61,607 nucleotides of DNA, filler included, from 4 parts of 4 records of this genome joined end to end with filler, not necessarily neighbours in it, one strand, 5' to 3'; positions 25,229-52,133 are shown, numbered from the whole stretch's first letter. Numbers and translations are program-made. Notes: generated by a model from the sequence alone, not told the origin.

Positions 25229-25328
25229 NNNNNNNNNNNNNNNNNNNNNNNNNNNNNNNNNNNNNNNNNNNNTTAATTAATTAANNNNNNNNNNNNNNNN
25301 NNNNNNNNNNNNNNNNNNNNNNNNNNNN
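25229..25328. other. Artificial contig spacer
   Basis: 44 N + TTAATTAATTAA (stops in all six frames) + 44 N. Confidence 0.98.
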
Positions 25329-25501
25329 TCAGTCATACACAAAAGATCTGACACTCTCGTAGCGCTCGAGATTGGCCAATAATTGTCCAGAATAACCGGA
25401 GGACCAGAGCCCCGGGCGTAGCATTTCCGTACGAACATAACCTTTTGGCTTGTTTCATCCTTTCTCCGTCAAATAACTGAAACATAACGCTTTCCTATCA
25501 G

Positions 25502-26059: not shown

Positions 26060-26973
26060 ATCTTGTGTCCATATAGCTGAGTGCCAGCTTGCGCCTTGCC
26101 GGTGGTTTCGAATTCGAGGGTCGAATGCTCGATACCCAATTCGGCGCTGAGCCTCGCTTTGATTTGAGACTTGACTGGTTCAACGTCGTGCCATCGATCC
26201 GGATGGACGACGATATGGCAGTCAAGGGAAACCGCATGTTCCTGCATCTGCCACAGATGGACGTGGTGGATTCCGATCACCCCCTCCACATCCCGGACCA
26301 ATGCGACCACTGCAGCGTTTTCGATGTCTGGCGGGCTGCCCAGCATCAGCGTTCGGATCGGCCCGCCGATTTCGGTTCCCGCGAGGTACAGAATGTAGCC
26401 TGCGATAAGGATGGTTATGACTGGATCGACCAGCCACCAGTCATAGAGAATGATCAGCATGCCACCGACGATTACGGCTACCGAAGACAGCGCGTCAGAC
26501 AGATTGTGCAGAAACATCGCCCGGATGTTCATGCTATCTTTTTGCATCGAGTAGGTGAGCAGTGCGGTCAGTGCATCAACGACCAGTGCAACACCGCCAA
26601 TGTATACTACGGTCCAGCCCGCCACTTCTGGCGGTTCGAGCAACCGCAAGACGCCTTCATAGCAAAGGTAGACACCCACAATTATCAGTGTGGTGTAGTT
26701 GATCAGTGCCGCGACGATCTCGATCCGACCATAACCAAACGTCATTTCCTCGTCGGCTTCCCTGCGCGAAATCTTTCGGGCTGCGAAAGCGATCACCAGA
26801 GCGGCCATATCCGAGAAATTGTGAAGAGCATCAGCAATCAGCGCCAAACTGCCCGACACGATGCCGCCGGCAATTTGTGCAATCGTAAGAAGTGCATTGG
26901 CCCAGATCGCAACGGCAACGCGGCGATCGCCAGATTGCGGATCAAGGTGATTGTGCCCGTGATCATGCGGCAT
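26056..26973 (-). CDS. czcD: Cation diffusion facilitator (CzcD/ZitB-like)
   Basis: MPHDHGHNH, SLALIADALHNFSD, FGYGR.E, HNLSD (HD-HD site), IEHSTLEFE. Confidence 0.93.
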   Translation of the reverse strand: MPHDHGHNHLDPQSGDRRVAVAIWANALLTIAQIAGGIVSGSLALIADALHNFSDMAALVIAFAARKISRREADEEMTFGYGRIEIVAALINYTTLIIVGVYLCYEGVLRLLEPPEVAGWTVVYIGGVALVVDALTALLTYSMQKDSMNIRAMFLHNLSDALSSVAVIVGGMLIILYDWWLVDPVITILIAGYILYLAGTEIGGPIRTLMLGSPPDIENAAVVALVRDVEGVIGIHHVHLWQMQEHAVSLDCHIVVHPDRWHDVEPVKSQIKARLSAELGIEHSTLEFETTGKAQAGTQLYGHKI

Positions 26974-27733
26974 GGCTGGTGTCCTGGTGGCGATGGTTGG
27001 GTTTGGCAAATCCGGGAATCGCCGGGACATGGCCAGCGCGGATGGAGCGGACTCGAGCGTTCATCCAATGACGAATGACATGTCGGTACAGGAATTCTCG
27101 TACAACACCCAATGCCTGCCGGTGCTGACCAAAAAACGCATCGGGAGTGTCAAATGTTCCGTAGTCCCGAGCAATCCCGGTCTTCTGAATGTAGGTATCG
27201 TCCCCTGTCCATGTTACCGGGGGGGTCGACAGACTTTCTGTTCCCGCGCCATATCCGCACAAGCTGTCCGAGCTCGAAAAGCTACTTTGCAGAACCTTCA
27301 GAAAGCTTTGATCTAGGATGAACCCTTCCAAATTCACCCAACCGCGCTCAGTTTCGACCTCAACCCAGGAATGCAGGATCTCTTTCGGAGCAACAGGGTA
27401 AACAAGTTCTGGAACAACACCACGCTGTAGTTCCTTGTGAATTGCGAACCCGTGGAATCTGCATCTGATGTCCACGCCCCGCAATAGCGCCATCAGCAGC
27501 GTTCCCTTGGTGTTGCATTGGCCATATCCATCCTCAAGGACTTCACTAGCGGGAATGTCGTCTTCTCGATTATAGCCGAACGCGATTTCATTACGCACGA
27601 AGTCGTAGACTGCTCCGATCCGCTCGTGTTCGTCGAGATCGGCCCATCCGTGATCCTGGATCAGTTTGGCAATTGACGGGGATTGGAAATCCACGAGCCT
27701 GGTAGGCTCTAGAAGCGGATCTTGGTCGGGCAT
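26963..27733 (-). CDS. Transglutaminase-like protein
   Basis: YDFVRNEI.FGY, ASEVL..GYGQCNTKGTLLMALLR, HSWVEV. AGGAG RBS. Confidence 0.88.
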   Translation of the reverse strand: MPDQDPLLEPTRLVDFQSPSIAKLIQDHGWADLDEHERIGAVYDFVRNEIAFGYNREDDIPASEVLEDGYGQCNTKGTLLMALLRGVDIRCRFHGFAIHKELQRGVVPELVYPVAPKEILHSWVEVETERGWVNLEGFILDQSFLKVLQSSFSSSDSLCGYGAGTESLSTPPVTWTGDDTYIQKTGIARDYGTFDTPDAFFGQHRQALGVVREFLYRHVIRHWMNARVRSIRAGHVPAIPGFAKPNHRHQDTSHAA

Positions 27734-27762
27734 GAAAGGTCTCCTCGAATCGTTCAAGGAGA

Positions 27763-27793
27763 TATGTAGGTGCTACAGTGACTGTAGATTCAA
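27763..27793 (-). promoter_or_regulatory. MerR-type promoter/operator for the transglutaminase-CDF operon
   Basis: -35 TTGAAT, 19-bp spacer containing the dyad CTACAGT-N-ACTGTAG, -10 TACATA. Confidence 0.85.
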
Positions 27794-27899
27794 GTTGTTT
27801 CTGAGTGTCCTCAATCCTCAAGGTATTGCTTGTTCTGGCACCTTTGAATTCGAATGACGATACGTCGCCTGCTAGCTAAGGGAAAATTGCATTTTGAAG

Positions 27900-28328
27900 C
27901 TAGGCTCCGATCTCGTTGTGGTCGGTCAGGCATTCCGAATGATCGCGCAACACTTCCAAAACGCGGCAGTCGGCAGTTCTCCCACCACTGCATTCGTGAA
28001 CCATTCGCTTTAGTTCTTGCCGAAGCGCTTCCAGACGCTGCAACCTCTGCTCAACCTGCTTTAGTTGCCGACGTGCAATCTGGTCCGCCTCCTCGCAAGG
28101 CCGATCAGGGTGGTCGCCTAGGTCGAGGAGTTCTCGGATTGCATCGAGCGAGAACCCCAACTGACGCGCGTGCCGAATGAAGGAAAGCCGGTCCAGCGCA
28201 GCAAGACTGTAACGGCGCTGCCCGCCTTCGGTCCGGTCCGGTTCTGGCATCAAACCGATCTGTTCATAGTACCGGATCGTTTGAACCTTGGTGCCGGTTT
28301 TCTTTCCCAAGCCACCTATTGTCAGCAT
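27900..28328 (-). CDS. MerR-family metal-sensing regulator (CadR/PbrR/ZntR type)
   Basis: VQTIRYYEQIGL...RLSFIRHARQLGFSL. Cys pattern PCEEAD...ECSGGRTADC. Confidence 0.95.
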   Translation of the reverse strand: MLTIGGLGKKTGTKVQTIRYYEQIGLMPEPDRTEGGQRRYSLAALDRLSFIRHARQLGFSLDAIRELLDLGDHPDRPCEEADQIARRQLKQVEQRLQRLEALRQELKRMVHECSGGRTADCRVLEVLRDHSECLTDHNEIGA

Positions 28329-28436
28329 TCCCCTCTCCTTCTAGCTATAGTCTTTGTAGGTTTGGAGGGCTGGGGATAGAATTGCAACACCTCAGTCACG
28401 ACCTCGTGATGGTACTGCTGAAGCTGAAGAAACAAC

Positions 28437-28467
28437 TTGAACCTCTAGCTGCTAGAGGATGTACAGC
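28437..28467 (+). promoter_or_regulatory. MerR-type promoter/operator for the SCO operon
   Basis: -35 TTGAAC, 19-bp spacer with the dyad CCTCTAGC-T-GCTAGAGG (28442-28458), -10 TACAGC. Confidence 0.85.
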
Positions 28468-28484
28468 CCGACAAATTGGCGAAT

Positions 28485-29105
28485 ATGGGCGGGCGACTTG
28501 CAGTGAATCTGGCGCTTCTACGAAAGATCCTTTGGGTGCTGGTCGGTGTCGCGGCGCTTTCATTTGCTATGCTTCTGCTTTGGGATAGTTACCGTTCCGA
28601 ACAGGGGTCAGACGAGCCGCAGGTCTTCCGCGCTGCTTTCGAGCTTACGGACCATCAGGGGATTGTACGGACGCAGGCGGACTTCGCAGGTCGATGGATG
28701 CTCGTGTTTTTTGGCTTTGCAAACTGTCCGGACGTCTGTCCAACAACGCTTTCCGAGGTCGCCGCAGTAATGGACTTGCTTGGCAACGATGCGGAACAAG
28801 TCCAGCCGCTTTTCATCTCCATCGATCCGGAGCGCGACACGCCCGAGGTGCTTGCGGATTTCGTTCCGCGGTTCGACGCTGGGATAATCGGTCTAACCGG
28901 AACACCAGCTCAAATTGCCCTTACGTCGGACACCTTCCACATCTTTTTCGAACGTATCGAAGAAGCGTCGGCACCTGACGGCTACACAATGGGCCACTCT
29001 TCGCAATTGTTCTTGTTCAACCCTGACGCGGGATACACCACGTCCTGGCAATATGGCACTCCGGCGGAAGAGATTCTGGTGGAATTGAGGGAATATATGG
29101 AATGA
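28485..29105 (+). CDS. SCO/SenC-family copper chaperone
   Basis: FGFANCPDVCP, IDPERDT, YTMGHS. Start uncertain. Confidence 0.93.
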   Translation: MGGRLAVNLALLRKILWVLVGVAALSFAMLLLWDSYRSEQGSDEPQVFRAAFELTDHQGIVRTQADFAGRWMLVFFGFANCPDVCPTTLSEVAAVMDLLGNDAEQVQPLFISIDPERDTPEVLADFVPRFDAGIIGLTGTPAQIALTSDTFHIFFERIEEASAPDGYTMGHSSQLFLFNPDAGYTTSWQYGTPAEEILVELREYME

Positions 29106-29530
29106 TGACATCAAGCCTGAGAGGCGAGGCGGCGCTCATGGCCGCATGGATCGTTGCGCTTTTCTCAACGCTGTCGGTTCTGTTCATCGGCGAAGTATTG
29201 GGCCAAATGCCCTGCCTGCTCTGCTGGTATCAGCGCGCGTTCATGTTCCCGCTGCCAATCATTCTGGGCCTTGGCCTCTGGTGGAAGGACACTGGCGTTG
29301 GACGCTACGGTGTCGCGCTCAGTCTAGGTGGCATGGCTATCGCGCTTTGGCATTCTGGTCTTTATGTCGGTGTCATCCCAGAGCCCATCCAACCCTGCAC
29401 CGCGACAGGTCCGTCTTGTACCGATGACAATCAAAAAATCTTCGGACTTCCGATTCCGGCACTGTCGCTTCTGGCCTTTACGCTCACCGCGAGCCTGTCG
29501 GCCCTGTCTCTGAAGGAAAATCAGCTATGA
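29102..29530 (+). CDS. DsbB/BdbC-like disulfide bond formation protein
   Basis: PCLLCWYQR, second Cys pair PCTATGPSC, 4 TM. Confidence 0.92.
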   Translation: MMTSSLRGEAALMAAWIVALFSTLSVLFIGEVLGQMPCLLCWYQRAFMFPLPIILGLGLWWKDTGVGRYGVALSLGGMAIALWHSGLYVGVIPEPIQPCTATGPSCTDDNQKIFGLPIPALSLLAFTLTASLSALSLKENQL

Positions 29531-30183
29531 TCCGCCGATCTATTGTCCTGGGAGTTCTCGCTCTCGGCTTTGCACTGTTTGCAACAGCGGTGTGGTACAC
29601 GACGCGATCCACCCCCGCGACTGAAAGCGCAGAGGTTCCGACCGAACTGCAACTGGCGCTCATTCGGCCTTATTCACCCATCCTGGGACCTGAGGAAGCG
29701 CCTGTCACCATCGTCGAGTTCTTCGATCCGGCCTGTGAAGCCTGCCGTGCCTTCTACCCGATCGTAGAGGACATCATGGCTGAACATGGTGAAAGTGTCC
29801 GGGTCGTTCTAAGATACACGCCGTTCCACGGCGAAGGTTCCGAAATCGCCATTCGCGTCCTCGAAGCCGCCCGAATGCAAGGGAACTTCGAAGCGGTCCT
29901 CGAAGCGCTCATGGAGGAACAACCCCGGTGGGCGGCCCATGGAGACATGCGCCCCGACCTAATCCTGCAGGTTGCCGTTTCGGCGGGTCTCGACCCCGAG
30001 GCCGCGCAGGCTCAGATGCTGGCGCCGCAAACCACCGGGCTTTTGAACCAAGAGCGCACAGATATCGAAACCGTCGGTGTGCGCCAGACGCCCACATTCT
30101 TCGTGAACGGCCGGCCTGTCGACCCATTTGGCGAGGCGGAATTGCGCGCGCTTGTGGCTGAAGAAGTCGCCAGCGAGTCGTGA
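29527..30183 (+). CDS. DsbA/BdbD-like thiol-disulfide oxidoreductase
   Basis: VTIVEFFDPACEAC, GVRQTPTFFVNG. Confidence 0.92.
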   Translation: MIRRSIVLGVLALGFALFATAVWYTTRSTPATESAEVPTELQLALIRPYSPILGPEEAPVTIVEFFDPACEACRAFYPIVEDIMAEHGESVRVVLRYTPFHGEGSEIAIRVLEAARMQGNFEAVLEALMEEQPRWAAHGDMRPDLILQVAVSAGLDPEAAQAQMLAPQTTGLLNQERTDIETVGVRQTPTFFVNGRPVDPFGEAELRALVAEEVASES

Positions 30184-30210
30184 GCACCCAAACTTGAAGT
30201 GGAAACCGAG

Positions 30211-30675
30211 ATGAAAAGAGTGACTCTTGTCATGCCGTTGGCCCTCGTTACAGTCCTCGCTGCACCCGTCGCGGCGTTAGCCGGATCAGAGGACGTGGAG
30301 ATTGAAAACGCCTGGGCGCGCGCCTCAATTTCCACCAGCCGGCCTGGCGCTGCGTACCTAACAGTTCGCAACACAGGCGACGTCGCAGTGACCCTCACTG
30401 GGCTCGCAACGCCATTGGCAATGATGCCTGAAATCCACGAGACAACAGTAACTGCCGAGGGCATCAGTTCCATGGCACCGGCAGGCGAGATCACGATTCA
30501 AGCCGGTGAAACCGTGGCGCTGGAACCCGGCGGCCTGCATGCGATGCTGATGGGTCTGCAATCTCCGATGACCGAGGGTGACTCCTTCCCGTTGACGCTG
30601 ACATTCTCGGATGGCGGTGACGTCACGGTCGACGTGCCGATCCTCGGCATCGCCGCGCGCGGACCCGAGGGCTGA
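30211..30675 (+). CDS. Periplasmic copper chaperone PCu(A)C
   Basis: Signal peptide, AWARA, GAAYL, EIHET...M...LEPGGLHAMLMGL. Confidence 0.93.
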   Translation: MKRVTLVMPLALVTVLAAPVAALAGSEDVEIENAWARASISTSRPGAAYLTVRNTGDVAVTLTGLATPLAMMPEIHETTVTAEGISSMAPAGEITIQAGETVALEPGGLHAMLMGLQSPMTEGDSFPLTLTFSDGGDVTVDVPILGIAARGPEG

Positions 30676-31301
30676 TGCGGCGGCGGGCGCTTCTCGGCTA
30701 TGGTGCGACGGGTTTCGGCGCACTCGGGCTGACACTTCTTGTCGGCTGGTGGCGCGTAGACGGTCCTGTCGCGCCTGATCCGGCGGAGCAGCGCCCGCTG
30801 CCCTTCTCGGAAATGGATTTCCGTCTGCAAGACCATGAAAGACAACCGGTTGGACCCGACATGTTGATCGGGCGCGCGTCGTTGGTTTTCTTCGGGTTCA
30901 CCTTTTGCCCGGATATCTGCCCCACAACGCTTTCCGACATTTCCGGCTGGCTGGACGACCTGGAAGATGATGCAGAACGGTTGAACGTGATCTTAATCAC
31001 AGTTGACCCCGAGCGTGACACCGTTGACGCGATGGCGGAATATGTAGGCTATTTTCATCCCGCAATACGCGGTTGGACAGGCCCTGAACCACAGATCGCG
31101 CGTGCTGCGGCCGATTTTCGCGCAATCTATGAACGGGTGCCCACTGAGAGTGGCGACTATACGATGAACCACACGGCGAGCGTGTTCTTGTTCGACCCGG
31201 AAGGACGCTTCGCCGGCTCCATCGACTATCACGAGCCGAGGGAATTCGCGGTGCCGAAGATCCGCAGAGCAATGGAAGCAGACGCTGTAGGTGAAACATG
31301 A
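30675..31301 (+). CDS. Second SCO/SenC-family protein
   Basis: FGFTFCPDICP, VDPERDT, YTMNHT. RR-containing N-terminus. Confidence 0.93.
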   Translation: MRRRALLGYGATGFGALGLTLLVGWWRVDGPVAPDPAEQRPLPFSEMDFRLQDHERQPVGPDMLIGRASLVFFGFTFCPDICPTTLSDISGWLDDLEDDAERLNVILITVDPERDTVDAMAEYVGYFHPAIRGWTGPEPQIARAAADFRAIYERVPTESGDYTMNHTASVFLFDPEGRFAGSIDYHEPREFAVPKIRRAMEADAVGET

Positions 31302-32677
31302 AACAATGGTATCTGGTTTCCGGGGTTGCATCAGCGGGTGTCGTTTCAGCCATTGCCTTTGCAATTTGGAGCGTCCGGCAAGTTGAACCCGTCCCGCCCT
31401 CGCTCGCAGCCGCCATTCGGTGGGTTCCGGAAACCGTCACTTCTCCTGAGCTTTCTGAGGCGCCGATTGTCGACTTGAGTGTTTCCCAAGTGCAAACGCG
31501 GCCCGAACTTACACCCCCGCCGCCGCTTCCCGTCGCCGCGAGTGTCGAGGAGTCGCTCCCTGTCATAGAGCCGCCACTCCTATCCTGGTCGCGTGATTTC
31601 GCTCCGGGTGAAACGCTCGATGGGGTGCTGGCAGATGCCGAACTCGGGGCCACAGACAGGGCCGAGGTCGCGCTGGCGCTTGGGGCAGAATACGATCTGC
31701 GGCGCCTGCGTCCGGGACATGGTCTCACCGTCGTGACGACCCGTCCGGAATCCCGTCTGCACAGCGTCCTTCTGGAATTGGATGGCGGCGTCCGTATTGA
31801 AGCGGTTTTTGGCACCGAAGTTGAGACACGCGTCCTTGTTCCTCAGCCCGAACTGGTGATCCGCGCGGGAGAGGCGCGTATCGAAAGTTCTGTCTTTGCA
31901 GCACTCGACGAGGCCGGAATGCCAGCACGCTTCGCGGTCGATCTCGCACAGATGCTGGGTGGAACATTTGACTTCCGGCGTGATCTGAGGGGCGGTGAAA
32001 CCTTGCGGCTGATGTGGCAGGAGGCACGGGTTGGAAACGAGATCATTGGCCAGCCGAGTCTGACCTTCGTGGCGCTTGACCTCGGTGACACAGTCTTCGA
32101 GATTGTTTGGCCCGGGGATGAGTCAGGTCGCGCAACTATCTATCGTGACGGAGAAATAATTCGGGTCTTCGCCCAACCCGTTGCGGGCGCGCGTCTCAGC
32201 TCGGTCTTTGGGCGCCGGACGCATCCGATCTACGGTAGTACGCGCATGCATACAGGCGTCGATTTCGCCGCTCCCCACGGAACACCGGTTTTTGCAACTG
32301 CCCCTGGCCAAGTCAGCTTCATCGGGCTTCGCGGTGGCTATGGTCGCGTCGTCGAGATTGCTCACGGGTCCGAGACCATGACCCGATATGCCCATCTGAG
32401 CGCCGTCCCCGAGGGCCTCGCCGTCGGCCAGTCCGTGGCTGCGGGGGACACGATTGGCCGCGTTGGTGAATCCGGCACTGCAACGGGACCGAATCTGCAC
32501 TACGAAGTACGTGTGGATGGCCGCCCCACCGATCCTCTCTCCGACGAACGCCTCATAACGGGCGTGGAAAGTGAAGCGCTGGATGCTGCCGCGCTCTCGC
32601 GTCTTAACGAAGCGCGCGCCATGCTCGACGAGCAACTCGCCGGCATGGGCTTCTCAAGCGACATCGAAAGGATTTAA
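31298..32677 (+). CDS. M23-family metallopeptidase (MepM-like)
   Basis: HTGVDFAA (HxxxD), TRYAHL, TGPNLHYE (NLH where HLH is usual). N-terminal TM. Confidence 0.9.
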   Translation: MKQWYLVSGVASAGVVSAIAFAIWSVRQVEPVPPSLAAAIRWVPETVTSPELSEAPIVDLSVSQVQTRPELTPPPPLPVAASVEESLPVIEPPLLSWSRDFAPGETLDGVLADAELGATDRAEVALALGAEYDLRRLRPGHGLTVVTTRPESRLHSVLLELDGGVRIEAVFGTEVETRVLVPQPELVIRAGEARIESSVFAALDEAGMPARFAVDLAQMLGGTFDFRRDLRGGETLRLMWQEARVGNEIIGQPSLTFVALDLGDTVFEIVWPGDESGRATIYRDGEIIRVFAQPVAGARLSSVFGRRTHPIYGSTRMHTGVDFAAPHGTPVFATAPGQVSFIGLRGGYGRVVEIAHGSETMTRYAHLSAVPEGLAVGQSVAAGDTIGRVGESGTATGPNLHYEVRVDGRPTDPLSDERLITGVESEALDAAALSRLNEARAMLDEQLAGMGFSSDIERI

Positions 32678-32680
32678 TCC

Positions 32681-33136
32681 ATGAAGCGACCCCTTGCGGC
32701 ACTCGCGTTTGCCCTAACCCTTTTCCCAACGGCGGAAGCCCTTGCACAGGCGATGCCAATCGAAGTCTACAAGACCAATGGATGCGGCTGTTGCCTTGCC
32801 TGGATGGAGCACTTGGAAGAGAACGACTTCGCTCCAACCGGGCAAGACATGTTCGCGGGGCTTCTGGTTCGGTTCAAGCTGGAGAACGGCGTGCCACAGC
32901 GCATGATTTCGTGCCACACGGGGCTTGTGGACGGATACGTTATTGAAGGCCATGTTCCCGCTACAGAAATTCGCCGTTTGCTGGAGGAACGCCCAGACGC
33001 CATAGGACTGGCTGTGCCGGGCATGCCGCTCGGATCGCCAGGTATGGATCAGAGTCGGCGCGCAGATGCATACGATGTCTTCCTCATAAACCGGGACGGA
33101 TCGACCGAGATTTTCGCAAGCTATCAAGGAATTTGA
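32681..33136 (+). CDS. DUF411 (CopG-like) metal-binding periplasmic protein
   Basis: CGCC..W, SCHT, IEGHVPA, GLAVPGMP.GSPGM. Confidence 0.92.
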   Translation: MKRPLAALAFALTLFPTAEALAQAMPIEVYKTNGCGCCLAWMEHLEENDFAPTGQDMFAGLLVRFKLENGVPQRMISCHTGLVDGYVIEGHVPATEIRRLLEERPDAIGLAVPGMPLGSPGMDQSRRADAYDVFLINRDGSTEIFASYQGI

Positions 33137-33139
33137 TCT

Positions 33140-33556
33140 ATGCAGAGCAGCACACAATCAGGCGGCATATCAGTGACAAACATTCACGGAACTCTAATAG
33201 AAGAGGCTGGGAATTGTGCGGGCGGGCGTCTGGAAAACCCAATGGTTGGCGGGTGGATATCTGCATTCTGCAAGGGGACCTTGTCTGCTGCCGTATTCCT
33301 TTCGCTCGGGGCCTGTGCTGTGCCAGTTACCGACACGTCCGCCACTCAACAGAACTACATGGAGGAATTGCCGGAGCAGGTCGTCGCAATTGCCGCATCC
33401 TATCAAAATCTTCAGGCCGTACGACTGCGGCCCGACGACGGGTGCTACTGGTACCAACATGTTGGACCCGTCGAGACGACAATGCTGCCGCTGTTAACCG
33501 CCTCTGGACGCTCGATTTGTACAAGGCGTGAGGCTGACCTTCCCGCGGCCAATTAG
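33140..33556 (+). CDS. Putative small lipoprotein (true start probably downstream)
   Basis: Lipobox-like LSLGAC, then DGCYWY.H.GPVETT.LPL...GRSIC. Confidence 0.65.
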   Translation: MQSSTQSGGISVTNIHGTLIEEAGNCAGGRLENPMVGGWISAFCKGTLSAAVFLSLGACAVPVTDTSATQQNYMEELPEQVVAIAASYQNLQAVRLRPDDGCYWYQHVGPVETTMLPLLTASGRSICTRREADLPAAN

Positions 33557-33688
33557 CGGACAAATTCGTCTGCAATTTCTTCCGGAACGTCAGGCCTATG
33601 ATTGACACCTCACGTGTTGCCGGAATGCCAACATCCCTCGCGAGCCTTGCCACCGCACGGCTCCGAAACGCCGGTAAATCCGAACCGA

Positions 33689-34360
33689 TCAACTATGCGC
33701 CGATGCGCGGCCGTCTCCATTAGCTGGATAGAGATGGGCGGTAACTCCGACCTGAACCTGTTCGTAGAGGTCATTAATATGGGGCATGACCATGCGCACA
33801 CAGCCCGAACTTGCGCGAGATCCTATCGAACGAGGATAGGGAGTGCCGTGGATGCGAAGATATGTATCCCTGTCGCCAACATAGAGATAGAGAGCACGCG
33901 ACCCCAAGGCATTCTGCGGGCCAGGCTCCATTCCGTTCTCATATTGAGAATAGAACTCGGGTTCGCGTTGGATCATAGCCGCTGTCGGCATCCAATGCGG
34001 CCATTCAACCTTGCGACGGATTGTGTAGGTGCCCGGCTCGTAAAGACCTGATCGACCGATAGCCACGCCATATCGCATGGCGGTTCCGCCCTCTTCAATG
34101 TGATAGAGATACCGAGCCACTGCATCGACGTGGATGTCGCCAGGCGAAAGATCGGCTCGCGCTTCGACCCGCTGCGGCAGCAACCGTGGGTGCAAACCCC
34201 AGGGGTTCGTTGTGGCCGGATCGTAGTTCGGCGGCGTAACTTGTGCATCCCAGTCAGCCCGTTGCGTTTCGGTTGGCCATGTGGTTGCAAGTGCTGGGAC
34301 GGCAATCGCTGGCGAAAACATCGCCGCAGCTGTCACGATAAAATGGCGCCTGGTCAGCAT
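33689..34360 (-). CDS. L,D-transpeptidase (YkuD family), Tat signal
   Basis: MLTRRHF, RYGVAIG, LGSRALYL, RIHGT...SIG..ASSGCVRM. Confidence 0.93.
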   Translation of the reverse strand: MLTRRHFIVTAAAMFSPAIAVPALATTWPTETQRADWDAQVTPPNYDPATTNPWGLHPRLLPQRVEARADLSPGDIHVDAVARYLYHIEEGGTAMRYGVAIGRSGLYEPGTYTIRRKVEWPHWMPTAAMIQREPEFYSQYENGMEPGPQNALGSRALYLYVGDRDTYLRIHGTPYPRSIGSRASSGCVRMVMPHINDLYEQVQVGVTAHLYPANGDGRASAHS

Positions 34361-34614
34361 GAGCCTGCTTCCCTCCAAGATTTGGTATTCCAGAGCACAG
34401 ATGTGCTGACTAAATTCCAGTAAACAAGAGCGGTTGCAAAAACCAAAGTCCAGTCAACTCCGCGCGAGATGTGAAGAAATGTCCTTGCCCCCTCGACATC
34501 AAGCAGGGGAAAACGCATTACCTCATCCACGATCAAAGGGCTGGCGGGACGAGCGCGAGTTTCGTTCGCCTGGCTTGCTGGCGGTAAGCGGCGATCGCAT
34601 CCGGAGGAAAGCTA

Positions 34615-34782
34615 ATGCTCGTAGTCTTAAGCGTTGTCGGTGGCGCAGTCTGGGGAGGCTTGTTGGCAAAAAAGCGCGGTGGTAACAGGCTCGATATCGC
34701 GCAGTATGCAGCTGTCTCGGCCATAGCCTTCGGCCTGCTGGCCGTTTTTGCAGTATTCCTTTTAGCAAGGCTTTTCGGTTAA
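34615..34782 (+). CDS. 55-aa two-TM membrane protein (not in ORF track)
   Basis: GGAGG RBS, then MLVVLSVVGGAVWGGLLAKKRGGNRLDIAQYAAVSAIAFGLLAVFAVFLLARLFG*. Confidence 0.75.
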   Translation: MLVVLSVVGGAVWGGLLAKKRGGNRLDIAQYAAVSAIAFGLLAVFAVFLLARLFG

Positions 34783-34812
34783 CTTTTCACGGTACTCCCC
34801 AATCATCCATGC

Positions 34813-35274
34813 TCAGGATGATGCATCAATGGCACGCTGGAAGGCTGCTAGAGTCGCCTCGCTCACATGATGCTCGATCCCCTCCGCATCGCGCTCGGCT
34901 GTTTCCTGGTCAATTCCGAGATTGATTAGGAATGCGACCACGATTCTGTGTCGCCGCCTGCACGCATCGGCAAGCGCTTGCCCCTCGTCAGTCAGAAAAA
35001 TCGAACGATATCGCTCGCGGCGAACTAGGCCTGCTGCTTTCAAGCGCGAGATATTCTTGGTGACAGTTGGCGGTTTCACCCCAAAACGCTCGGCAATATC
35101 GACCGGACGTGCTTCCCCCTGAACTTCAATAAGTTCGGCAATCAACTCAACGTAGTCCTCAGCCATTTCGCTCTCATGCGCCTTTCGCACGGTTGCGAAC
35201 CCATCGGCTTGTTCCTCGGGATCCCGCGCATAAGCGGCAGTGTCGTCACGAAAATTTGAAGGTTGGTTCGTCAT
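34813..35274 (-). CDS. mntR: MntR/DtxR-family metal-dependent repressor
   Basis: EDYVELIAEL...ARPVDIA..FGVKPPTVTK...RHRIVVAFL...AERDAEGIEHHVS. Confidence 0.9.
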   Translation of the reverse strand: MTNQPSNFRDDTAAYARDPEEQADGFATVRKAHESEMAEDYVELIAELIEVQGEARPVDIAERFGVKPPTVTKNISRLKAAGLVRRERYRSIFLTDEGQALADACRRRHRIVVAFLINLGIDQETAERDAEGIEHHVSEATLAAFQRAIDASS

Positions 35275-35302
35275 GGGGGGACAATGCCGGAACAACAATT
35301 GA

Positions 35303-35348
35303 TTGACAACTATTCGCCTCGGGTAGATATGTTAGCCTCATCTAACTT
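35303..35348 (+). promoter_or_regulatory. Promoter with putative MntR/DtxR operator
   Basis: TTGACA at 35303-35308 and dyad GTTAG-CCTCAT-CTAAC at 35331-35346, between divergent mntR and the di-heme gene. Confidence 0.65.
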
Positions 35349-35365
35349 TGGATCGGAGATTACGT

Positions 35366-37246
35366 GTGTTCCACAAGTTTTCCACTCTTGTGATTGGTGT
35401 AGCGCTTGGCGCTGGTCTTGCTAGTGGCCCTACATCGGCAACTCCGGTCCAGGAAGCCCCCTGGATTCCCGAAGCGGCTGCCTACCGGTTGACCTTGTTT
35501 CTGGGCAATCTAACCCCGGTCCCGTGGGATGAGTTGGAGCGGGCGTGGTTCGAACCTTATCACCAGTCCCAGTTCGCGCAGGGCGCTTTTCAGTGGCTTG
35601 AGGCTGAAAGCGATGTGGAGACTGATCAACTGATAGCCGCGATTGCAAGCGAGGATCGCCAGGCCGTTTTTTCGGAGGCGACACGACTGATTGCCGTACG
35701 CATCAACGAGGAATTGGACGAAGCACTCGCGGCCGAAACTCCTGCAGCGGCCCAACAAGCCGTCGGCGCGGCACAGGAACTCTACCGGGCATTTGCCGAC
35801 CACATTGCCGCCGCCGACCCAGACGCCGCGCGGGAGATCGGCCTTGCCTGGCTGGAAATGGCAAGCGCAACAGGCTCCGCCGGCGTACTTGGTGTCGCTG
35901 TCGTTCAGCCGGACCGCGACGCCATGCAAGCCTCGCGCGCGGTCATTTCAGACTACCTTGCTGCTAACTATCTCATTCACTCCTTCGCGCCGCGTGACAC
36001 GCTGAGCGCTGTGCCCGAAACCGTCGCCCTTGGAGGCCACGCCGTTGCCATCCCTGTAACGCTGCCACCCGGCTCTGACATATTCGATCAGGATCCCTTG
36101 CCACGTCTGGTTCTGGGCTTTGAAGAGCAGGGAATCGATGAAACCGATTTGCCGCTGATTGCATATGGCGACATGCTGTTTGATAGCCCCGAGATTTTCA
36201 GCGGACCAGCACGCGAGCTTGGGATTGCTTGCTCGTCCTGCCACAACCGCTCGGACATCAATCAGCGCTTTTTCATCCCCGGTGCCAGCCATCAGCCCGG
36301 CGCGGTGGATGTGGACGGCGCTTTCTTCAATCCGATGTTCAATGACCGGCGCGATGACCCGATCGACATTCCCAGCTTGCGCGGTCTTCGCTTCACTGGC
36401 CCCTATGGTCGCGACGGTCGCTTCGCCAGCCTCCGCGACTTCACACGCAATGTGATCGTCAATGAGTTCGCGGGTGCAGAGCCGACACCTTTCATGCTGG
36501 ATGCCATCGTCGCCTACATGACGGAGTTTGACTTTCTGCCAAATTCTCTGCTGACCGGAGATGGGCAATTGACTGCCGCTGCCTCCGAAGCTGCGCGGCA
36601 GGGTGAAGAGATTTTCAACCGGCCTTTCGATGGACTCGGGGGCAGGTCCTGCGCAAGTTGTCACGTCCCGGACGGGAATTTCCTCGACCGGCAGGCGCAT
36701 GATATCGGATCGGTTGCACCAGCCTATCAGGACGCGCGCGCAGGGGCGCTTGACACGCCGACCTTGTTGGGAACGGTTTACACCGCGCCCTATTTTCACG
36801 ACGGCTCGTTGCCAACGCTCGCAGCCGTTGTGGACTGGTTCGACGATACAAATGCGCTTGGACTGTCCGGCGCTGAGAGAGATGATCTGACCGCCTATCT
36901 CGAAGCCGTCGGTGCCGCGGATGAGCCTTACGAGCAGTTTGATGACGAAAACACCCCCTTCCGGCTGGCTTTCGCTGAGTTGACCACCTTTGCATCGACA
37001 CTCGACACGCTTCTGCTGCGGCGAGACATCCACCACATCCTGCTTCTGACCGATAGCGTCGCTTCGGATCTTGCGGCGGATGCCGGGACGATGGCCAATC
37101 TGTCCGCGCGCCCCGAAGTCTATTCATTGGCGGCGCACCTTGCTGAAGTTGGCACAGCTGTTCGCGCTGGTGACTGGCCTGCTGCAGAGGCAAGCTGGGC
37201 GGCCTTTCAGGGCGAAGCGCAAGCCATCGAAGAAAGGGCGTTCTGA
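35366..37246 (+). CDS. Exported di-heme cytochrome c (bCcP/MauG superfamily) with extra N- and C-terminal helical domains
   Basis: Signal peptide, CSSCH and CASCH, IPSLR..., TPTLL...TAPYFHDGS. GGAG RBS before GTG 35366. Confidence 0.88.
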   Translation: MFHKFSTLVIGVALGAGLASGPTSATPVQEAPWIPEAAAYRLTLFLGNLTPVPWDELERAWFEPYHQSQFAQGAFQWLEAESDVETDQLIAAIASEDRQAVFSEATRLIAVRINEELDEALAAETPAAAQQAVGAAQELYRAFADHIAAADPDAAREIGLAWLEMASATGSAGVLGVAVVQPDRDAMQASRAVISDYLAANYLIHSFAPRDTLSAVPETVALGGHAVAIPVTLPPGSDIFDQDPLPRLVLGFEEQGIDETDLPLIAYGDMLFDSPEIFSGPARELGIACSSCHNRSDINQRFFIPGASHQPGAVDVDGAFFNPMFNDRRDDPIDIPSLRGLRFTGPYGRDGRFASLRDFTRNVIVNEFAGAEPTPFMLDAIVAYMTEFDFLPNSLLTGDGQLTAAASEAARQGEEIFNRPFDGLGGRSCASCHVPDGNFLDRQAHDIGSVAPAYQDARAGALDTPTLLGTVYTAPYFHDGSLPTLAAVVDWFDDTNALGLSGAERDDLTAYLEAVGAADEPYEQFDDENTPFRLAFAELTTFASTLDTLLLRRDIHHILLLTDSVASDLAADAGTMANLSARPEVYSLAAHLAEVGTAVRAGDWPAAEASWAAFQGEAQAIEERAF

Positions 37247-38124
37247 TGAACCTACTGCTGACCCGCCGTCATCTTCTGGCCCAATCCGCTGCGGGAGCGT
37301 GCGCCTTGCTGGCAGTGCCAGCCATGGCACAAACTGAAACGCTTCGCCTTGCTTTCATCCCGCAGGAGAATCCGCAAAAACTCCTTGGAGATATCGAGGC
37401 CATCACCGGCTGGTTGTCCGCCGAAATCGGCGTGGAGGTGGAGGGCTTCGTGACCATCGACCATGCCGCCGCTGTCGAGGCACTGCGCAATGGCGACGCT
37501 GACATTTCATTTATGGGGGCACTGCCCTTCGTTCTGGCCGAAGCCGAGATCGGGGCGGTGCCGCTCCTGTCCGAGATTTACCGCGGTTCGCCGAGCTATA
37601 CGGGCCGCGTATTCGTCCGCAGGGATAGTGGCATCGAAACCCTGGCCGATCTTCGTGGTCGCGACATCGCCTTTGCCGATCCTGTTTCGGAATCGGGCTA
37701 CCTCTACCCATTGGCCGAGTTCGAGCGTGCAGGGTTGATTGCAAGCTTGGCTGATGCCGACACGTTTTTTGGCAGAATGTTTTTCGCAGGGGGCTATCAG
37801 CAGGCGATGCAGGCGATGGCCGAAGGGCTCGTCGATGCGGCAGGGGCCAGCCAGTTTGCAGATTTGCTCCTTTCACCTGACCAGCAGTCTCAAGTGACAT
37901 GGATCGCAGAGAGCGAGACTATCCCAAGCCATGTTGTGATCGCCCGCCCGGGTCTCGACGCTGAGGTGCAGGCAAGTTTTGTTGCGGCGATGCTGAGGCT
38001 CAACGAAGATGAAAACAGCGAGATGCTGCGCTATCTCTACGGTCCCGATGGGTATGTTACTGCCGATCCAACAGCGTTTGAAGGCGTTCGTGCCATGGCC
38101 AGTCGATATGGGTTGCTGCGATGA
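37246..38124 (+). CDS. PhnD-like ABC substrate-binding protein (Tat signal) with altered binding motifs
   Basis: LTRRHLL signal, AVEALRNGDADI, DLRGRDIAFADPVSESGYLYP. Confidence 0.88.
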   Translation: MNLLLTRRHLLAQSAAGACALLAVPAMAQTETLRLAFIPQENPQKLLGDIEAITGWLSAEIGVEVEGFVTIDHAAAVEALRNGDADISFMGALPFVLAEAEIGAVPLLSEIYRGSPSYTGRVFVRRDSGIETLADLRGRDIAFADPVSESGYLYPLAEFERAGLIASLADADTFFGRMFFAGGYQQAMQAMAEGLVDAAGASQFADLLLSPDQQSQVTWIAESETIPSHVVIARPGLDAEVQASFVAAMLRLNEDENSEMLRYLYGPDGYVTADPTAFEGVRAMASRYGLLR

Positions 38125-38903
38125 CACCCGCAATTCAAACTGAGGACCTTGCATTCTCTCATCTTGGCTCGGGCTTGCCCGCATTGGCAGAGGTCGCACT
38201 TTTAACGCCGGAAGGAGCGGCTATCGCGCTGCTTGGCCCCTCTGGCGCGGGGAAGACTACGCTGTTGACGCTGCTCGATGGGCGGCTGCGAGGCTGGCAT
38301 GGCCGCGCAACGGTGCTCGGGTCGGCTCTCGATCCCGATCGCGCTCCACCTCTTGCCCGGCGCGCCGATACGGGCTTTATCTTTCAGGAATTCGCGCTCG
38401 TTGAACGCTCCACTGTTCTGAGAAATGTTCTGAACGGCCGGCTAGCCCGGATGGAGTTCTTCCGCGCCCTCCTGGCGCGCCCGTCGCCGAATGACGTGAC
38501 CATCGCCCGGACAGCGTTGGAGGATTGCGGCATCGCGGATCTCGCCGAAAGGCGCGTCGATAGCCTAAGCGGCGGTCAACGCCAAAGGGTCGCGATTGCG
38601 CGCTGTCTGGCACAGGAACCAAGGCTGATCCTGGCCGACGAACCCGTTAGCAATCTTGACCCCGTCCGCGCTGCGGAGATTCTGTCGCTTCTCACCCGGG
38701 CTGCAAGAAAACGCGGTGCAACCACGGTTTTCTCTTCACATCAGCCCGAACTGGCGCGCCGGTTTGCTGAAAGGGTGATCGGTATGCGGAATGGGCGGAT
38801 CGTCTTCGACATGGCCACTGAAGATTTGAGCGAAGACGCGACTGTTCAGCTTTACCAGGACGCCGAGAATCCGCTTTCCCCTCTTTTGCAGGTGGTTCAG
38901 TGA
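38121..38903 (+). CDS. PhnC-like ABC ATPase
   Basis: GPSGAGKTT, LSGGQRQRVAIAR, LILADEPVSNLDP. Confidence 0.92.
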   Translation: MTPAIQTEDLAFSHLGSGLPALAEVALLTPEGAAIALLGPSGAGKTTLLTLLDGRLRGWHGRATVLGSALDPDRAPPLARRADTGFIFQEFALVERSTVLRNVLNGRLARMEFFRALLARPSPNDVTIARTALEDCGIADLAERRVDSLSGGQRQRVAIARCLAQEPRLILADEPVSNLDPVRAAEILSLLTRAARKRGATTVFSSHQPELARRFAERVIGMRNGRIVFDMATEDLSEDATVQLYQDAENPLSPLLQVVQ

Positions 38904-39661
38904 AGCGCGCGCGGAATGTCGGCGGTTTTGCGGCCAGCGCGCTTATCGCAGGTGCCGTGCTCTGGTCTTTAGTGACAACCGATGTTGAACTGTCCCGGTT
39001 GCTGTCCGCAGCGCCACGCATTGCTGATTTTCTTGGACGGATGTTCCCCCCGGATCCGACGGTGATGTCCGAGATTGTGCGCGGCAGCGCAGAAACACTG
39101 CGCATCGCCATCGTCGGGACGCTCGGCGCCGTCATCCTGTCCGTACCGCTCGGTATTCTTGCCTCCGACACGATGGCTCCGCCTGCCGTTTATCGACTGG
39201 TTCGTACGCTGCTCGCGCTCATTCGTGCCATTCCCCTGATACTTGTCGCAATGCTAATGGTTGGGGCGGTGGGGCTAGGACCATTGCCTGGCATCATCGC
39301 GGTTGCGTTTCATGCCACGGGCATGCTGGCAAAGTTCTATTCAGAGGCGATCGACAATGTCGAGCGCGCGCCAATCGCTGCGTTGGAAAGCGCCGGAGCC
39401 GGTCCGATTCTTCGTCTTCGCCACGCAATCTGGCCGCAGATGGCGCCGGTCATCGCCCGCGACACCATTTTCCGGTTCGAGTTGAACTTGCGGGAGTCAC
39501 TCGTCCTAGGCATCGTCGGGGCCGGCGGAATTGGGTTCTACATTCAGACATACGTGCGCTCGTTCCAGTACGATAAAGCGGCGAGCGTAACGATAGCAGT
39601 GATCATCATGGTTATCGCGATCGAGGCCGTGAATGTCGCGCTTAGGCGGCGCTTCACCTGA
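38900..39661 (+). CDS. PhnE-like ABC permease
   Basis: MFPPD, AKFYSEAI, RFELNLRESLVLGIVGAGGIG. Confidence 0.92.
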   Translation: MKRARNVGGFAASALIAGAVLWSLVTTDVELSRLLSAAPRIADFLGRMFPPDPTVMSEIVRGSAETLRIAIVGTLGAVILSVPLGILASDTMAPPAVYRLVRTLLALIRAIPLILVAMLMVGAVGLGPLPGIIAVAFHATGMLAKFYSEAIDNVERAPIAALESAGAGPILRLRHAIWPQMAPVIARDTIFRFELNLRESLVLGIVGAGGIGFYIQTYVRSFQYDKAASVTIAVIIMVIAIEAVNVALRRRFT

Positions 39662-39818
39662 CGCGTGTATCTAACCAATCTGCGGCGGATATCTCCGCAG
39701 CAGGGCTCATCGTCCCATCACTCGATCTGTTGTTTCGACGGCTGTTTTCGAAAGCTGGCCCGCTGCAGCCTGTCGCTTCGTTCCAATTCATTCTGGAAAG
39801 CGTATCCTACGCAAATCT

Positions 39819-41472
39819 TCAGTGCCCGTGCGCAAGAGCACCGGCGGCCCTCTGTTCTCCCGTTCCCAGGCCCCCGTGCGGTGTCCCTTGATCGTGTTTG
39901 GTGTTCAGCAACCGTAGTGTGTTCATCACCACAATCAGAGACACGCCGACATCAGCAGCAATCGCGCCCCACATCGAGGCCATGCCAAACGCGGTCAGGC
40001 CAACAAACAATGCCTTCGTTGCCAGTGAAATGCCGATATTCTGGCGAATGATCACCATTGTCCGTCGAGAGTGAGCAATGAGCCATGGCACCTTGCCGAT
40101 ATCATCGGTCATCAATGCGACGTCGGCAGTTTCGATGGCTGCGTCCGACCCTACCGCTCCCATGGCAATGCCATAATGCGCGAGCGCCATGGCAGGTGCG
40201 TCGTTCACACCGTCGCCAATCATCGCCACCATGTCGTGGCTGGTGACCAACTCCTCGATGGCGGTGACCTTGTCTTCGGGCAGAAGTTCGGCGCGCACTT
40301 CGTCGATTCCGACCTCGGCTGCAACCGCCCGTGCGGTGCGTTCATTGTCTCCGGTCAACATCACGACTGTGCCGACACCAAGGCCATGCAATCTCGCCAC
40401 GATGCTTCTGGCGTCGGGCCTGATCTGATCGCGCAGCTCTAGAATGCCAGTCACGCCATTTTCGTCGCCCACGGCAACCAATGTGCTGCCCGCTCCCTCG
40501 ATCCGGTCGCGGATATTGGCGGGGATTTCGACGCCGAAACCCAACTCCTCGGCAAATCTATCAGACCCGAGCCAAATCGTTTTACCGGCGGAACGACCTT
40601 CCAGTCCGCGTCCCGGAATCGTTCTGGTGTCATCGGCGGCGGTGATCAGAGCACCGTCGCGTTCGGCCCGTTTAAGAATGGCGCGTGCCAGTGGGTGCGA
40701 TGAGCGTGCCTCGAGCGAGGCAGCAATGCTCAGCAGGTCACGCTCGCTGCTGCCACCAAGCGGATAAACCGCGGAAACCTCGGGTTCTCCCATTGTCAAG
40801 GTTCCAGTCTTGTCCATTGCCAGCGCAGTTGTCCGGCCTGGAGCTTCGACATAGGCTCCGCCCTTGATCAAAACGCCGGACCGCGCAGACGAGGCAAGCG
40901 CAGCGACAATGGAAACCGGTGTCGAAATCACCAGCGCGCAGGGGCAGGCGATGACCAGAAGAACCAGTGCATTGTAGAACCAGAAGCCCCAGGTGCCACC
41001 GGCCAGCAGCGGTGGTAGCAATGCGATGGCGATGGCAAGGGCCATAACCGCAGGGGTGTAGATGCGGGCGAATTTGGTGACCCATTGTTCCACCTCAGCG
41101 CGCCGGGAATGCGCATCACCGACCATACGGATAATCTTGGACAAAACGGTATCGGCCACCACCTTCGTTACCCGAATGGTCAGTGTGCCTTCACCGTTGA
41201 TAGTGCCCGCAAACACATCGTCGCCGAGCCCTTTGGGGACAAGCGCACTCTCGCCAGTGATCGGAGCTTGGTCGACCGCTCCAACTCCCTCCGTCACCTC
41301 TCCATCAAGTGGGATACGGTCGCCACCACGCACGACAAAAAGATCGCCAATGGCGACCTGTTCTGCCGGGATGGTCGCTTCGCTGCCGTCGGATCTGATC
41401 ACGCGTGCTGTTGGCGGTGCAAGGTCCAGGAGCGCCGCGACAGCATTGCGCGCCCGTCCGACGCTCCAGCTT
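39819..41472 (-). CDS. Heavy-metal P1B-type ATPase (Zn/Cd/Pb, ZntA/CadA-like), 5' end lost at gap
   Basis: TGES, IACPCALV, DKTGT, SHPLA, GDGVNDAP, with Lys (ATKAL) and Asp (ADVG) in the last TMs. Confidence 0.93.
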
Positions 41473-41572
41473 NNNNNNNNNNNNNNNNNNNNNNNNNNNN
41501 NNNNNNNNNNNNNNNNTTAATTAATTAANNNNNNNNNNNNNNNNNNNNNNNNNNNNNNNNNNNNNNNNNNNN
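41473..41572. other. Artificial contig spacer
   Basis: 44 N + TTAATTAATTAA + 44 N. Confidence 0.98.
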
Positions 41573-52033: not shown

Positions 52034-52133
52034 NNNNNNNNNNNNNNNNNNNNNNNNNNNNNNNNNNNNNNNNNNNNTTAATTAATTAANNNNNNNNNNN
52101 NNNNNNNNNNNNNNNNNNNNNNNNNNNNNNNNN
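52034..52133. other. Artificial contig spacer
   Basis: 44 N + TTAATTAATTAA + 44 N. Confidence 0.98.

Follow-up and report, generated by a model that had tools for sequence, protein, structure and literature searches.

What does a transporter of the ATP-binding cassette (ABC) class, of the phosphonate and phosphite type, do beside a manganese-sensing regulator and a di-heme cytochrome? The question is raised by five genes at positions 34813-39661 of a stretch of DNA of 61,607 nt (hereafter the window), which consists of 4 contigs joined by N spacers and is not one molecule. A reading made from the sequence alone (the sequence-only reading) had seen in these genes a candidate undescribed metal uptake or redox system, combining a cytochrome under MntR control with a repurposed PhnDCE transporter. 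Here, the five genes emerge from comparison across genomes and plasmids as a conserved, horizontally moving unit that likely represents an undescribed kind of manganese uptake system. More specifically, we consider the chances about even that the module is a manganese-starvation uptake system, which couples a metal-binding PhnD-fold protein to a redox partner.

Architecture and conservation of the five-gene module

The mntR gene is oriented divergently to four genes whose stop and start codons overlap at each of the three junctions. This arrangement, described in the sequence-only reading, was confirmed, together with its assignment of the four genes to an exported di-heme protein and to homologues of PhnD, PhnC and PhnE (two CxxCH motifs; Pfam and NCBIfam matches):

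34813..35274, minus strand: mntR, 153 aa, Mn-sensing regulator of the DtxR family (NF008273 and Mn ligands)
35366..37246, plus strand: exported di-heme protein, 626 aa (two CxxCH, Pfam CCP_MauG, AlphaFold2 (AF2) model)
37246..38124, plus strand: PhnD-fold periplasmic binding protein, 292 aa (Pfam Phosphonate-bd, 188 bits)
38121..38903, plus strand: PhnC-like ABC ATPase, 260 aa (ABC_tran; TIGR02315 219.4 bits, under the cut-off of 266.1)
38900..39661, plus strand: PhnE-family ABC permease, 253 aa (TIGR01097 245.6 bits, over the cut-off of 216.7)
37244-37248: junction TGATG (cytochrome/binding protein)
38121-38124: junction ATGA (binding protein/ATPase)
38900-38903: junction GTGA (ATPase/permease)

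For the cytochrome, the likeliest start codon is GTG 35366, 7 nt behind a GGAG at 35355-35358, and for mntR it is ATG 35274. Two TTG codons were dropped as alternative starts: 35298 for mntR, and 35348 for the cytochrome, which falls within the operator described below.

Relatives of the cytochrome were gathered by a scan of one genome per species, and the best 80 of the resulting 148 loci were analysed. The sequence-only reading had proposed that MntR, this clade of cytochromes and PhnDCE be sought together in genomes, and together they were found: homologues of phnD, phnC and phnE follow the cytochrome in the same order in 71/71 loci with at least 2.5 kb downstream, and a divergent mntR precedes it in 77/77 loci with at least 900 nt upstream (3 loci were too short and were omitted). 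By ORF-based (open reading frame) blastp, these mntR products are 66-85% identical to the window copy, two identical loci aside. A second clade, with about 55% identity in the cytochrome, is carried by plasmids of Labrenzia, Roseibium, Leisingera and Ruegeria and, in the one record examined (Labrenzia THAF191a), has the same five genes. Homologous-protein searches with two proteins of the module returned only a tight clade, at 72-100% and 76-100% identity among the matches listed (at least 120). The distribution is sporadic: the binding-protein clade occurs in 1 of 401 sampled alphaproteobacterial genomes, where the next best protein has 33% identity, and a phylum-wide sample, likewise of 401 genomes, has the cytochrome in 3 at E 1e-40, both sets being samples that do not prove absence elsewhere.

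The proteins of the whole contig piece around the module (25329-41472) are 100% identical to those of Nioella ostreopsis Z7-4 and of one metagenome-assembled genome. For questions on the scale of a genome we used the nearest genome (G001; 28% shared words), whose module is identical at the protein level, as a stand-in for the assembly of the window.

Predicted manganese-responsive control of the module

The regulator lies above the MntR equivalog cut-off (NCBIfam NF008273, 199.3 vs 153 bits) and matches E. coli MntR (2h09) with E 3.7e-38. In B. subtilis MntR, the binuclear Mn site is formed by Asp8, Glu11, His77, Glu99, Glu102 and His103 (PMC6860424). Alignment to 1on1 places D40, E43, H109, E131, E134 and H135 of the window protein at these six positions, and the set D-E-H-E-E-H recurs in 77/77 homologues of the regulator, those on plasmids being named MntR by RefSeq. 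G001 has one MntR gene, the one inside the module, no match for Nramp, and three ZnuA-family binding proteins. The sequence-only reading had left the metal open between manganese and iron under MntR/DtxR control; at the level of sequence, the equivalog match, the six ligands and the operator support manganese, and control by iron is left unsupported.

The intergenic region contains the following elements:

35303..35308, plus strand: TTGACA, predicted -35 hexamer (near-invariant TTGACAAC), with AGATAT 16 nt on
35330..35349, no strand: MntR-box-like palindrome TGTTAGCCTCATCTAACTTT, 20 bp, family consensus AAGTTAGC-N4-kCTAACTT
35352..35357, plus strand: RNA contig starts of six runs (35354 in X15, X16, X17 and X20; 35352 in X18; 35357 in X19)

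A DtxR-like dyad, which the sequence-only reading had noted in this promoter, is indeed present there, unique both in the window and in G001, and conserved in relatives. In the window it reads TGTTAGCC-TCAT-CTAACTTT, and its inner part, TTAGCCTCATCTAA at 35332-35345, fits the pattern TTAGC-N4-KCTAA, which occurs nowhere else in the 61.6 kb of the window (0.05 expected); in G001, GTTAG-N6-CTAAC has a single site, the module's own, and a control pattern gave 4 matches per strand. Across relatives the layout is constant: TTGACAAC, near-invariant in 54 aligned unique intergenic regions, then about 17 variable bases, then TAGATAAGT, then the palindrome. Of 57 unique intergenic regions, 54 have the exact core TAGM-N4-KCTA, a count inflated by the relatedness of the loci; two others depart from it by one base, and one was extracted too short. 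The arms of the palindrome are constant and its four spacer bases vary across loci, as predicted by selection on a dimer-binding site. In the Labrenzia clade, two such boxes persist within an otherwise dissimilar intergenic sequence. The palindrome has the same 8-4-8 layout as the enterobacterial MntR consensus AACATAGCnnnnGCTATGTT and the five sites that Rodionov et al., 2006 (PMC1698941, Table S5) give for alphaproteobacteria; the parts of that study drawn on here list no phn or cytochrome target for MntR. As the site lies at and just after the -10 region, which it adjoins, we infer repression by Mn-MntR.

A second, degenerate half-palindrome is seen at 35309-35329, between the -35 and -10 elements, and Limimaricola and Labrenzia loci (L055, L072, L075, L089) have a full second box of the form TTAGx-N4-xCTAA there; two MntR dimers may bind in tandem.

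The sequence-only reading had seen no obvious Pho box, and a search for CTGTCAT-N4-CTGTCAT with 3 mismatches gave 4 matches in the window against 3.28 expected, none in the promoter and the nearest within mntR. Its statement that C-P lyase and ptxD are lacking likewise holds for the ORFs of the contig piece that carries the module (25329-41472), in which family searches found neither of these, nor htxA.

The operon is covered by RNA contigs from six runs, comprising five estuary metatranscriptomes (possibly of one campaign) and one transcriptome, and all three junctions are bridged (31-letter rule). The contigs start 3-8 nt past the palindrome and leave 35256-35351 uncovered, and the DNA runs X4 and X12 cross the start region in a single contig; this is a weak hint that the RNA contig starts mark the 5' end of a transcript.

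A PhnD-fold binding protein with a rebuilt pocket

The transporter is a divergent member of the PhnDCE families. The binding protein passes the cut-off of the broad subfamily TIGR01098 (146.7 vs 112.05 bits) and falls below that of the PhnD equivalog TIGR03431 (153.5 vs 261.1), and, of the cut-offs given above, the ATPase misses that of PhnC and the permease passes that of PhnE. The N-terminal twin-arginine motif of the binding protein, TRRHLL, in which both Arg are invariant in the clade, predicts export by the twin-arginine translocation (Tat) pathway. The closest solved relatives are PtxB, ArrX, HtxB, AioX and PhnD, the nearest being PtxB 5lv1 (E 2.6e-21). The phosphite ligands of Te_PtxB are D22, Y55, Y100, S130, T131, S132, H160 and Y208 (Bisson et al., 2017; PMC5700983), and the STS-H oxyanion motif and the Tyr ligands are conserved in PhnD/PtxB binders of phosphonate and phosphite (PMC5700983). 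Three pairwise sequence alignments at about 27-31% identity map these positions to the window protein as follows:

Te_PtxB D22: window protein Q40
Te_PtxB Y55: window protein H73
Te_PtxB Y100: window protein Y118
Te_PtxB S130: window protein S148
Te_PtxB T131: window protein E149
Te_PtxB S132: window protein S150
Te_PtxB H160: window protein Y184
Te_PtxB Y208: window protein H229

The STS-H motif is lost, with SES-Y in its place, and the capping and the O3-binding Tyr are both His. All eight residues are invariant in 60/60 unique sequences of the clade (Y118 in 59, with one gap), and the Labrenzia copy keeps the same eight. Conversely, Y-Y-S[TN]S is kept in 17/17 other PhnD-like proteins of the 401-genome alphaproteobacterial sample, in which the H160 position is His in 14 and Tyr in two. 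With its Glu within the loop for the anion, its two newly gained His and its two Tyr, the pocket has, we infer from the alignment, the composition of a cation rather than an oxyanion site. Three phnJ matches and a canonical PhnD lie elsewhere in G001; hence, the transporter of the module is an extra, divergent paralogue. The word 'repurposed' in the sequence-only reading is therefore supported to this extent, as far as sequences go: a divergent paralogue with a pocket without the STS-H motif. Public annotation has the proteins of the module as phosphate, phosphite or phosphonate transporters.

The nearest outgroup binding proteins (L112 in G021 and L113 in G133) are about 28-33% identical and have the pocket QYYSTSYH, sharing Q40, Y184 and H229. 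Each is followed by a single gene that fuses ABC ATPase and permease, with no cytochrome adjacent.

A di-heme cytochrome outside the named subfamilies

The cytochrome carries the motifs C289SSCH and C429ASCH behind a signal peptide or N-terminal hydrophobic helix (AF2 model). Its Pfam CCP_MauG match (40.1 bits, cut-off 25.6) covers only residues 431-495; the AF2 model (pLDDT 93.6, pTM 0.89) adds a helical N-domain (about 27-232), a core of the bCcP/MauG fold (about 250-525) and a C-terminal four-helix bundle (523-626). The core gave Foldseek E values of 1.7e-8 to 3e-7 for the bCcP/MauG fold, and VIA Z scores of 19.2 to the hydrazine synthase gamma subunit, 18.7 to the MbnH-like 6e1c, 18.5 to MauG, 18.5 to BccP and 18.0 to YhjA. 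It falls far below the cut-offs for the di-heme CCP subfamily (NF040606, 17.4 vs 150 bits), MauG (TIGR03791, 32.6 vs 443.85) and MbnH (TIGR04039, 39.5 vs 362.85), so that, going by the model, it is a bCcP/MauG-fold core outside every named subfamily.

At the position of the Met of BccP, N. europaea CCP and Paracoccus CCP, and of the Tyr of MbnH-like 6e1c, all of which we take to be axial heme ligands, the cytochrome has F492, next to an invariant W491. H309 sits 16 residues past H293, presumably the spacing of the distal His of bCcP, and H445 is near-invariant in the wider family.

The flanking domains gave weaker leads. The N-terminal ~200 residues had no Foldseek match at E 0.001 or better and no usable ESM Atlas match; the top hits, EfeM 7q1g (E 0.62), EfeO 7wgu (E 0.69) and imelysin 3n8u (E 0.72), are not significant, and by VIA the best Z is 7.5, with imelysin at Z 6.0 and rank 24, within helical noise. 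The C-terminal bundle resembles four-helix bundles of the PsbQ/CyanoQ type (Z 12.9, within the noise of helical bundles). The wider family numbers 466 representatives at E 1e-10, many of about 430 residues and without the N-domain.

Three distant relatives (P0272, P0358 and P0364; about 610-650 aa) have propeller repeats (Reg_prop) ahead of the di-heme core, which recall the beta-gamma fusion of hydrazine synthase.

A proposal for redox-assisted manganese uptake

We propose that the module acts in manganese starvation in the following manner. Mn(II)-loaded MntR would occupy the palindrome beside the -10 region and so shut both promoters; when manganese falls, the operon would be expressed, and cytochrome, binding protein and PhnCE-type importer would be produced in coupled amounts. 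A metal cation would be coordinated in the binding protein by H73, E149, H229 and the tyrosinates Y118 and Y184, while S148 and S150 might, like the corresponding groups of ferric-binding proteins, retain a synergistic anion. The cytochrome would alter the redox state of the metal.

As to the direction of that change, we tentatively prefer, at clearly less than even chances, a route in which Mn(II) is oxidised by the di-heme protein at the expense of peroxide and the resulting Mn(III) is captured by the hard-ligand site and imported by PhnCE. It is preferred because tyrosinate sites favour trivalent ions, because it mirrors the logic of EfeB/EfeO and the chemistry of FbpA, and because it would make manganese uptake possible under high zinc and cadmium, which fits the genomic island around the module. 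Zinc and cadmium poison Mn(II) binding proteins; a Mn(III) route would be selective in a way that neither Zn(II) nor Cd(II) can imitate, and would account for the travel of the module with Zn/Cd/Cu resistance genes. The reverse route, in which reduction of Mn(III) chelates or oxides frees Mn(II), is our second option. That the module is a third class of bacterial manganese importer, defined by a peroxide-driven di-heme Mn(II) oxidase and a transferrin-like His/Glu/Tyr site in a PhnD fold, is speculative, and we hold it to be clearly less likely than not.

Several observations weigh against manganese uptake of this kind. The permease passes the PhnE equivalog cut-off, and the pocket was mapped at the low identities given above. 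The anion-site residues S148, S150 and Y118 are retained in the clade, on account of which the ligand might be an anion or a metal-anion complex. A sigma-70 scan of 34600-39900 called no promoter, so the one named here rests on conservation and not on that scan, and the RNA data, being contigs, attest presence in libraries and neither level nor a response to manganese. In G001, the three ZnuA-family proteins may already serve manganese uptake. The tie of peroxidases, MauG/MbnH enzymes and the hydrazine synthase gamma subunit at Z 18.5-19.2 would suit more than one chemistry for the cytochrome. MntR also senses Cd(II) (PMC6860424), and no manganese importer with a PhnD fold is known from the portions of a review (PMC8632737) used here.

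Alternative explanations

The strongest competitor keeps both partners and changes what one does to the other: the di-heme protein would oxidatively modify the binding protein (e.g., at the invariant W56 or W219 or at a pocket Tyr) and thereby build its metal site. The structural kinship to MauG and to 6e1c, a 'MauG-like protein associated with microbial copper homeostasis', speaks for it, as do the alignment of F492 with the position that is Met in bCcP and Tyr in MbnH (which we take to be axial ligands), the adjacency and translational coupling of the gene to that of a periplasmic partner of metal-binding type, and two additional helical domains that could dock a protein. Such maturation is nonetheless unlikely in our estimate, as the scores lie far under the MbnH and MauG cut-offs, the cytochrome is partnered by a PhnD-fold protein and by neither MbnP nor MADH, and His, Glu and Tyr ligands are already in the pocket without modification. 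Less probable again is that the cytochrome and the transporter are only loosely linked, the former being a di-heme periplasmic peroxidase that protects Mn-starved cells and the latter functionally unrelated to it. The bCcP fold (Z 18.5 to BccP) and the placement of H309, which we take to be that of a distal His, would suit a peroxidase, and manganese and peroxide defence are linked in bacteria (PMC8632737, in part). However, strict co-occurrence in 71/71 loci, overlapping stop and start codons, a di-heme CCP score far under its cut-off and some 300 extra residues in two helical domains make this a poor candidate.

Other explanations exchange the ligand or the direction of transport. A plain importer of phosphorus or another oxyanion, with MntR control as a metabolic link (for instance, through phosphate that buffers or precipitates metals), would agree with the Phosphonate-bd and TIGR01098 scores, the PhnE equivalog match, the retention of S148, S150 and Y118, and the phosphite or arsenic oxyanions bound by the nearest solved relatives. 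Yet the exchange of T131 for Glu makes one residue of the anion loop negatively charged, Tyr has replaced H160 and His both Y55 and Y208, the PhnD and PhnC equivalog cut-offs are missed, the promoter has no Pho box, the piece has no ptxD, htxA or C-P lyase, and G001 has its canonical PhnD and C-P lyase elsewhere; we think it improbable. To the same low degree we credit a pocket for Fe(III) or another hard cation, served by a ferroxidase-like cytochrome and a regulator that is merely MntR-like. Fe(III) is typically bound by sites rich in tyrosinate that also contain His and Glu, as in FbpA, the EfeUOB logic concerns iron, and EfeM and EfeO head the (non-significant) N-domain hits; against iron stand the Mn-specific ligands of 77/77 regulators, including the equivalents of Asp8, Glu11 and Glu99, the MntR equivalog match, and an operator of MntR type that is not among the iron boxes in the parts of PMC1698941 consulted. 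The least credible, in our view very improbable indeed, is resistance, with MntR activating the operon at high manganese or cadmium and the system detoxifying metals. The neighbours do include Cu/Zn/Cd resistance genes, and MntR can activate efflux genes in other bacteria (PMC11882963, in part); however, type I ABC systems that depend on a binding protein are importers, the operator lies at and after the -10 region, which is the layout of a repressor, and RNA contigs start just past it.

Relationship to known uptake systems

If the module is a manganese uptake system, it falls within starvation-controlled, redox-assisted metal uptake by an ABC system. EfeUOB/EfeM and FtrABCD are starvation-induced iron uptake systems that pair a periplasmic heme peroxidase partner and a metal-binding protein with a membrane importer, the same logic as we propose for the module. 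The sequence-only reading had drawn this analogy, which survives as one of logic and not of parts: Pfam searches found no FTR1/EfeU permease or DyP family in any ORF of the piece 25329-41472, the EfeO-like lead in the N-domain is not significant, and the module has no cupredoxin, relying instead on an ABC importer, a c-type di-heme protein and MntR. The nearest precedent for the proposed metal site is FbpABC, a type I ABC importer of ferric iron whose class II binding protein, kin to anion binders, holds a naked cation by His, Glu and Tyr together with a synergistic anion. The module differs from it in the family of the binding protein, in its heme partner, in a metal site that is predicted by alignment, and in that FbpABC is iron-regulated.

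With MbnP/MbnH (6e1c) and MauG/MADH the module shares a MauG-like di-heme gene beside that of a periplasmic metal-binding partner (Z 18.5-18.7) and an operon with a link to metals, whereas its cytochrome lies under both cut-offs, has two extra helical domains and Phe at the axial-ligand position, and its partner is the binding protein of a transporter. PtxABC, PhnCDE and HtxBCDE share its fold and subunit families; the module has SES-Y for STS-H, His for two Tyr and an MntR operator, and is without a Pho box and without oxidising or C-P lyase genes. The arsenic sensors AioX and ArrX and the sterol carrier BstB likewise show the PhnD fold turned to ligands other than phosphorus, but no metal cation or pairing with a heme protein is reported for them, and the pocket differs (SFS in ArrX). 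MntR-repressed manganese acquisition, as predicted here, is shared with MntABC/SitABCD/PsaABC and MntH, which in contrast use cluster A-I (ZnuA/TroA-fold) binders or Nramp and import Mn(II) with no redox partner involved. MntH and MntABC are the only two conserved types of bacterial manganese importer according to the consulted portions of the review (PMC8632737). The module was not found described in the open-access literature on MntR with cytochrome c peroxidase, phosphonate transporter, PhnD, Roseobacter or Rhodobacterales, and public annotation handles its parts separately.

Genomic setting and mobility

The piece that carries the module stands out from its surroundings, the GC3 of its genes being 0.63-0.68, against 0.75-0.95 on most other parts of the window, a sharp contrast between the joined pieces. 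The remaining features of the window to be noted are:

25229-25328, 41473-41572 and 52034-52133: N spacers (paired runs of 44 N and a 12-base linker)
39819-41402: gene of a ZntA-like P-type ATPase, truncated by the contig end

The gene families on this piece include a methyltransferase-like membrane protein, a CDF efflux protein, a transglutaminase-like protein, a MerR regulator, two SCO1, DsbB, a DsbA-like protein, PCuAC, an M23 peptidase, DUF411 and a YkuD transpeptidase, the last followed by mntR, the four-gene operon and the ZntA-like ATPase gene. The metal-homeostasis island of the sequence-only reading is thus real, as witnessed by CDF, MerR, the two SCO1, DsbB, the DsbA-like protein, PCuAC, DUF411 and the ZntA-like ATPase, the gene for which is present in 49 of the 64 loci having at least 3 kb after phnE.

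Matches to the cytochrome occur in 104 plasmid records and span at least 80% of its length in 43; 48 of the 104 are typed as conjugative and 19 as mobilizable, and the module is common on such plasmids of roseobacters. Its carriers include Tritonibacter mobilis and Phaeobacter inhibens, the latter an experimentally tractable species. A quick tree groups the window cytochrome with Hoeflea (SH-aLRT 89). Identical cytochromes are found across genera (Tritonibacter/Thalassovita/Tropicibacter and Sulfitobacter/Paracoccus), which argues for a very recent horizontal spread of the island.

Some copies suggest loss. One locus of a complete-looking genome of the same family (L109; G715:C4:197447-198676) has a cytochrome homologue (E 2.4e-161) with two in-frame TGA codons, which may be a decaying copy, and plasmids of Dinoroseobacter shibae and Salipiger profundus retain only a 65-residue cytochrome remnant (query residues 21-85, 66% identity), annotated as hypothetical, that looks like the relic of a lost module. 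On a Labrenzia plasmid (L089 7217-8071), a PAP2 phosphatase gene adjoins mntR, and CbtA/CbtB cobalt transporter genes and a heavy-metal ATPase are present. On such comparisons, the cargo of the island is variable around a constant five-gene core. In 44 of the 80 loci, tblastn finds matches (37-60% identity) to a 138-aa ORF of the window island (33140-33556, plus strand) that belongs to no Pfam or NCBIfam family. Most of these loci also have a YkuD transpeptidase homologue, and the ORF appears to be a conserved, uncharacterised component of the island.

Implications

If the proposal holds, a PhnD-fold, heme-assisted and MntR-controlled system would be a third type of manganese importer, and conversion of an anion-binding fold into a cation binder would be seen for a second time, independently. 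By the Mn(III) route, it would also provide manganese uptake that zinc and cadmium cannot poison, spread among marine bacteria on metal-resistance plasmids. As annotation assigns these proteins to phosphate, phosphite or phosphonate transport, marine surveys that count phnD may miscount the capacity for phosphorus redox chemistry. Finally, a manganese supply linked to Zn/Cd/Cu stress would be relevant to the ways in which coastal bacteria withstand pollution by metals, since the module is common on plasmids, identical across genera and present in estuarine RNA libraries.

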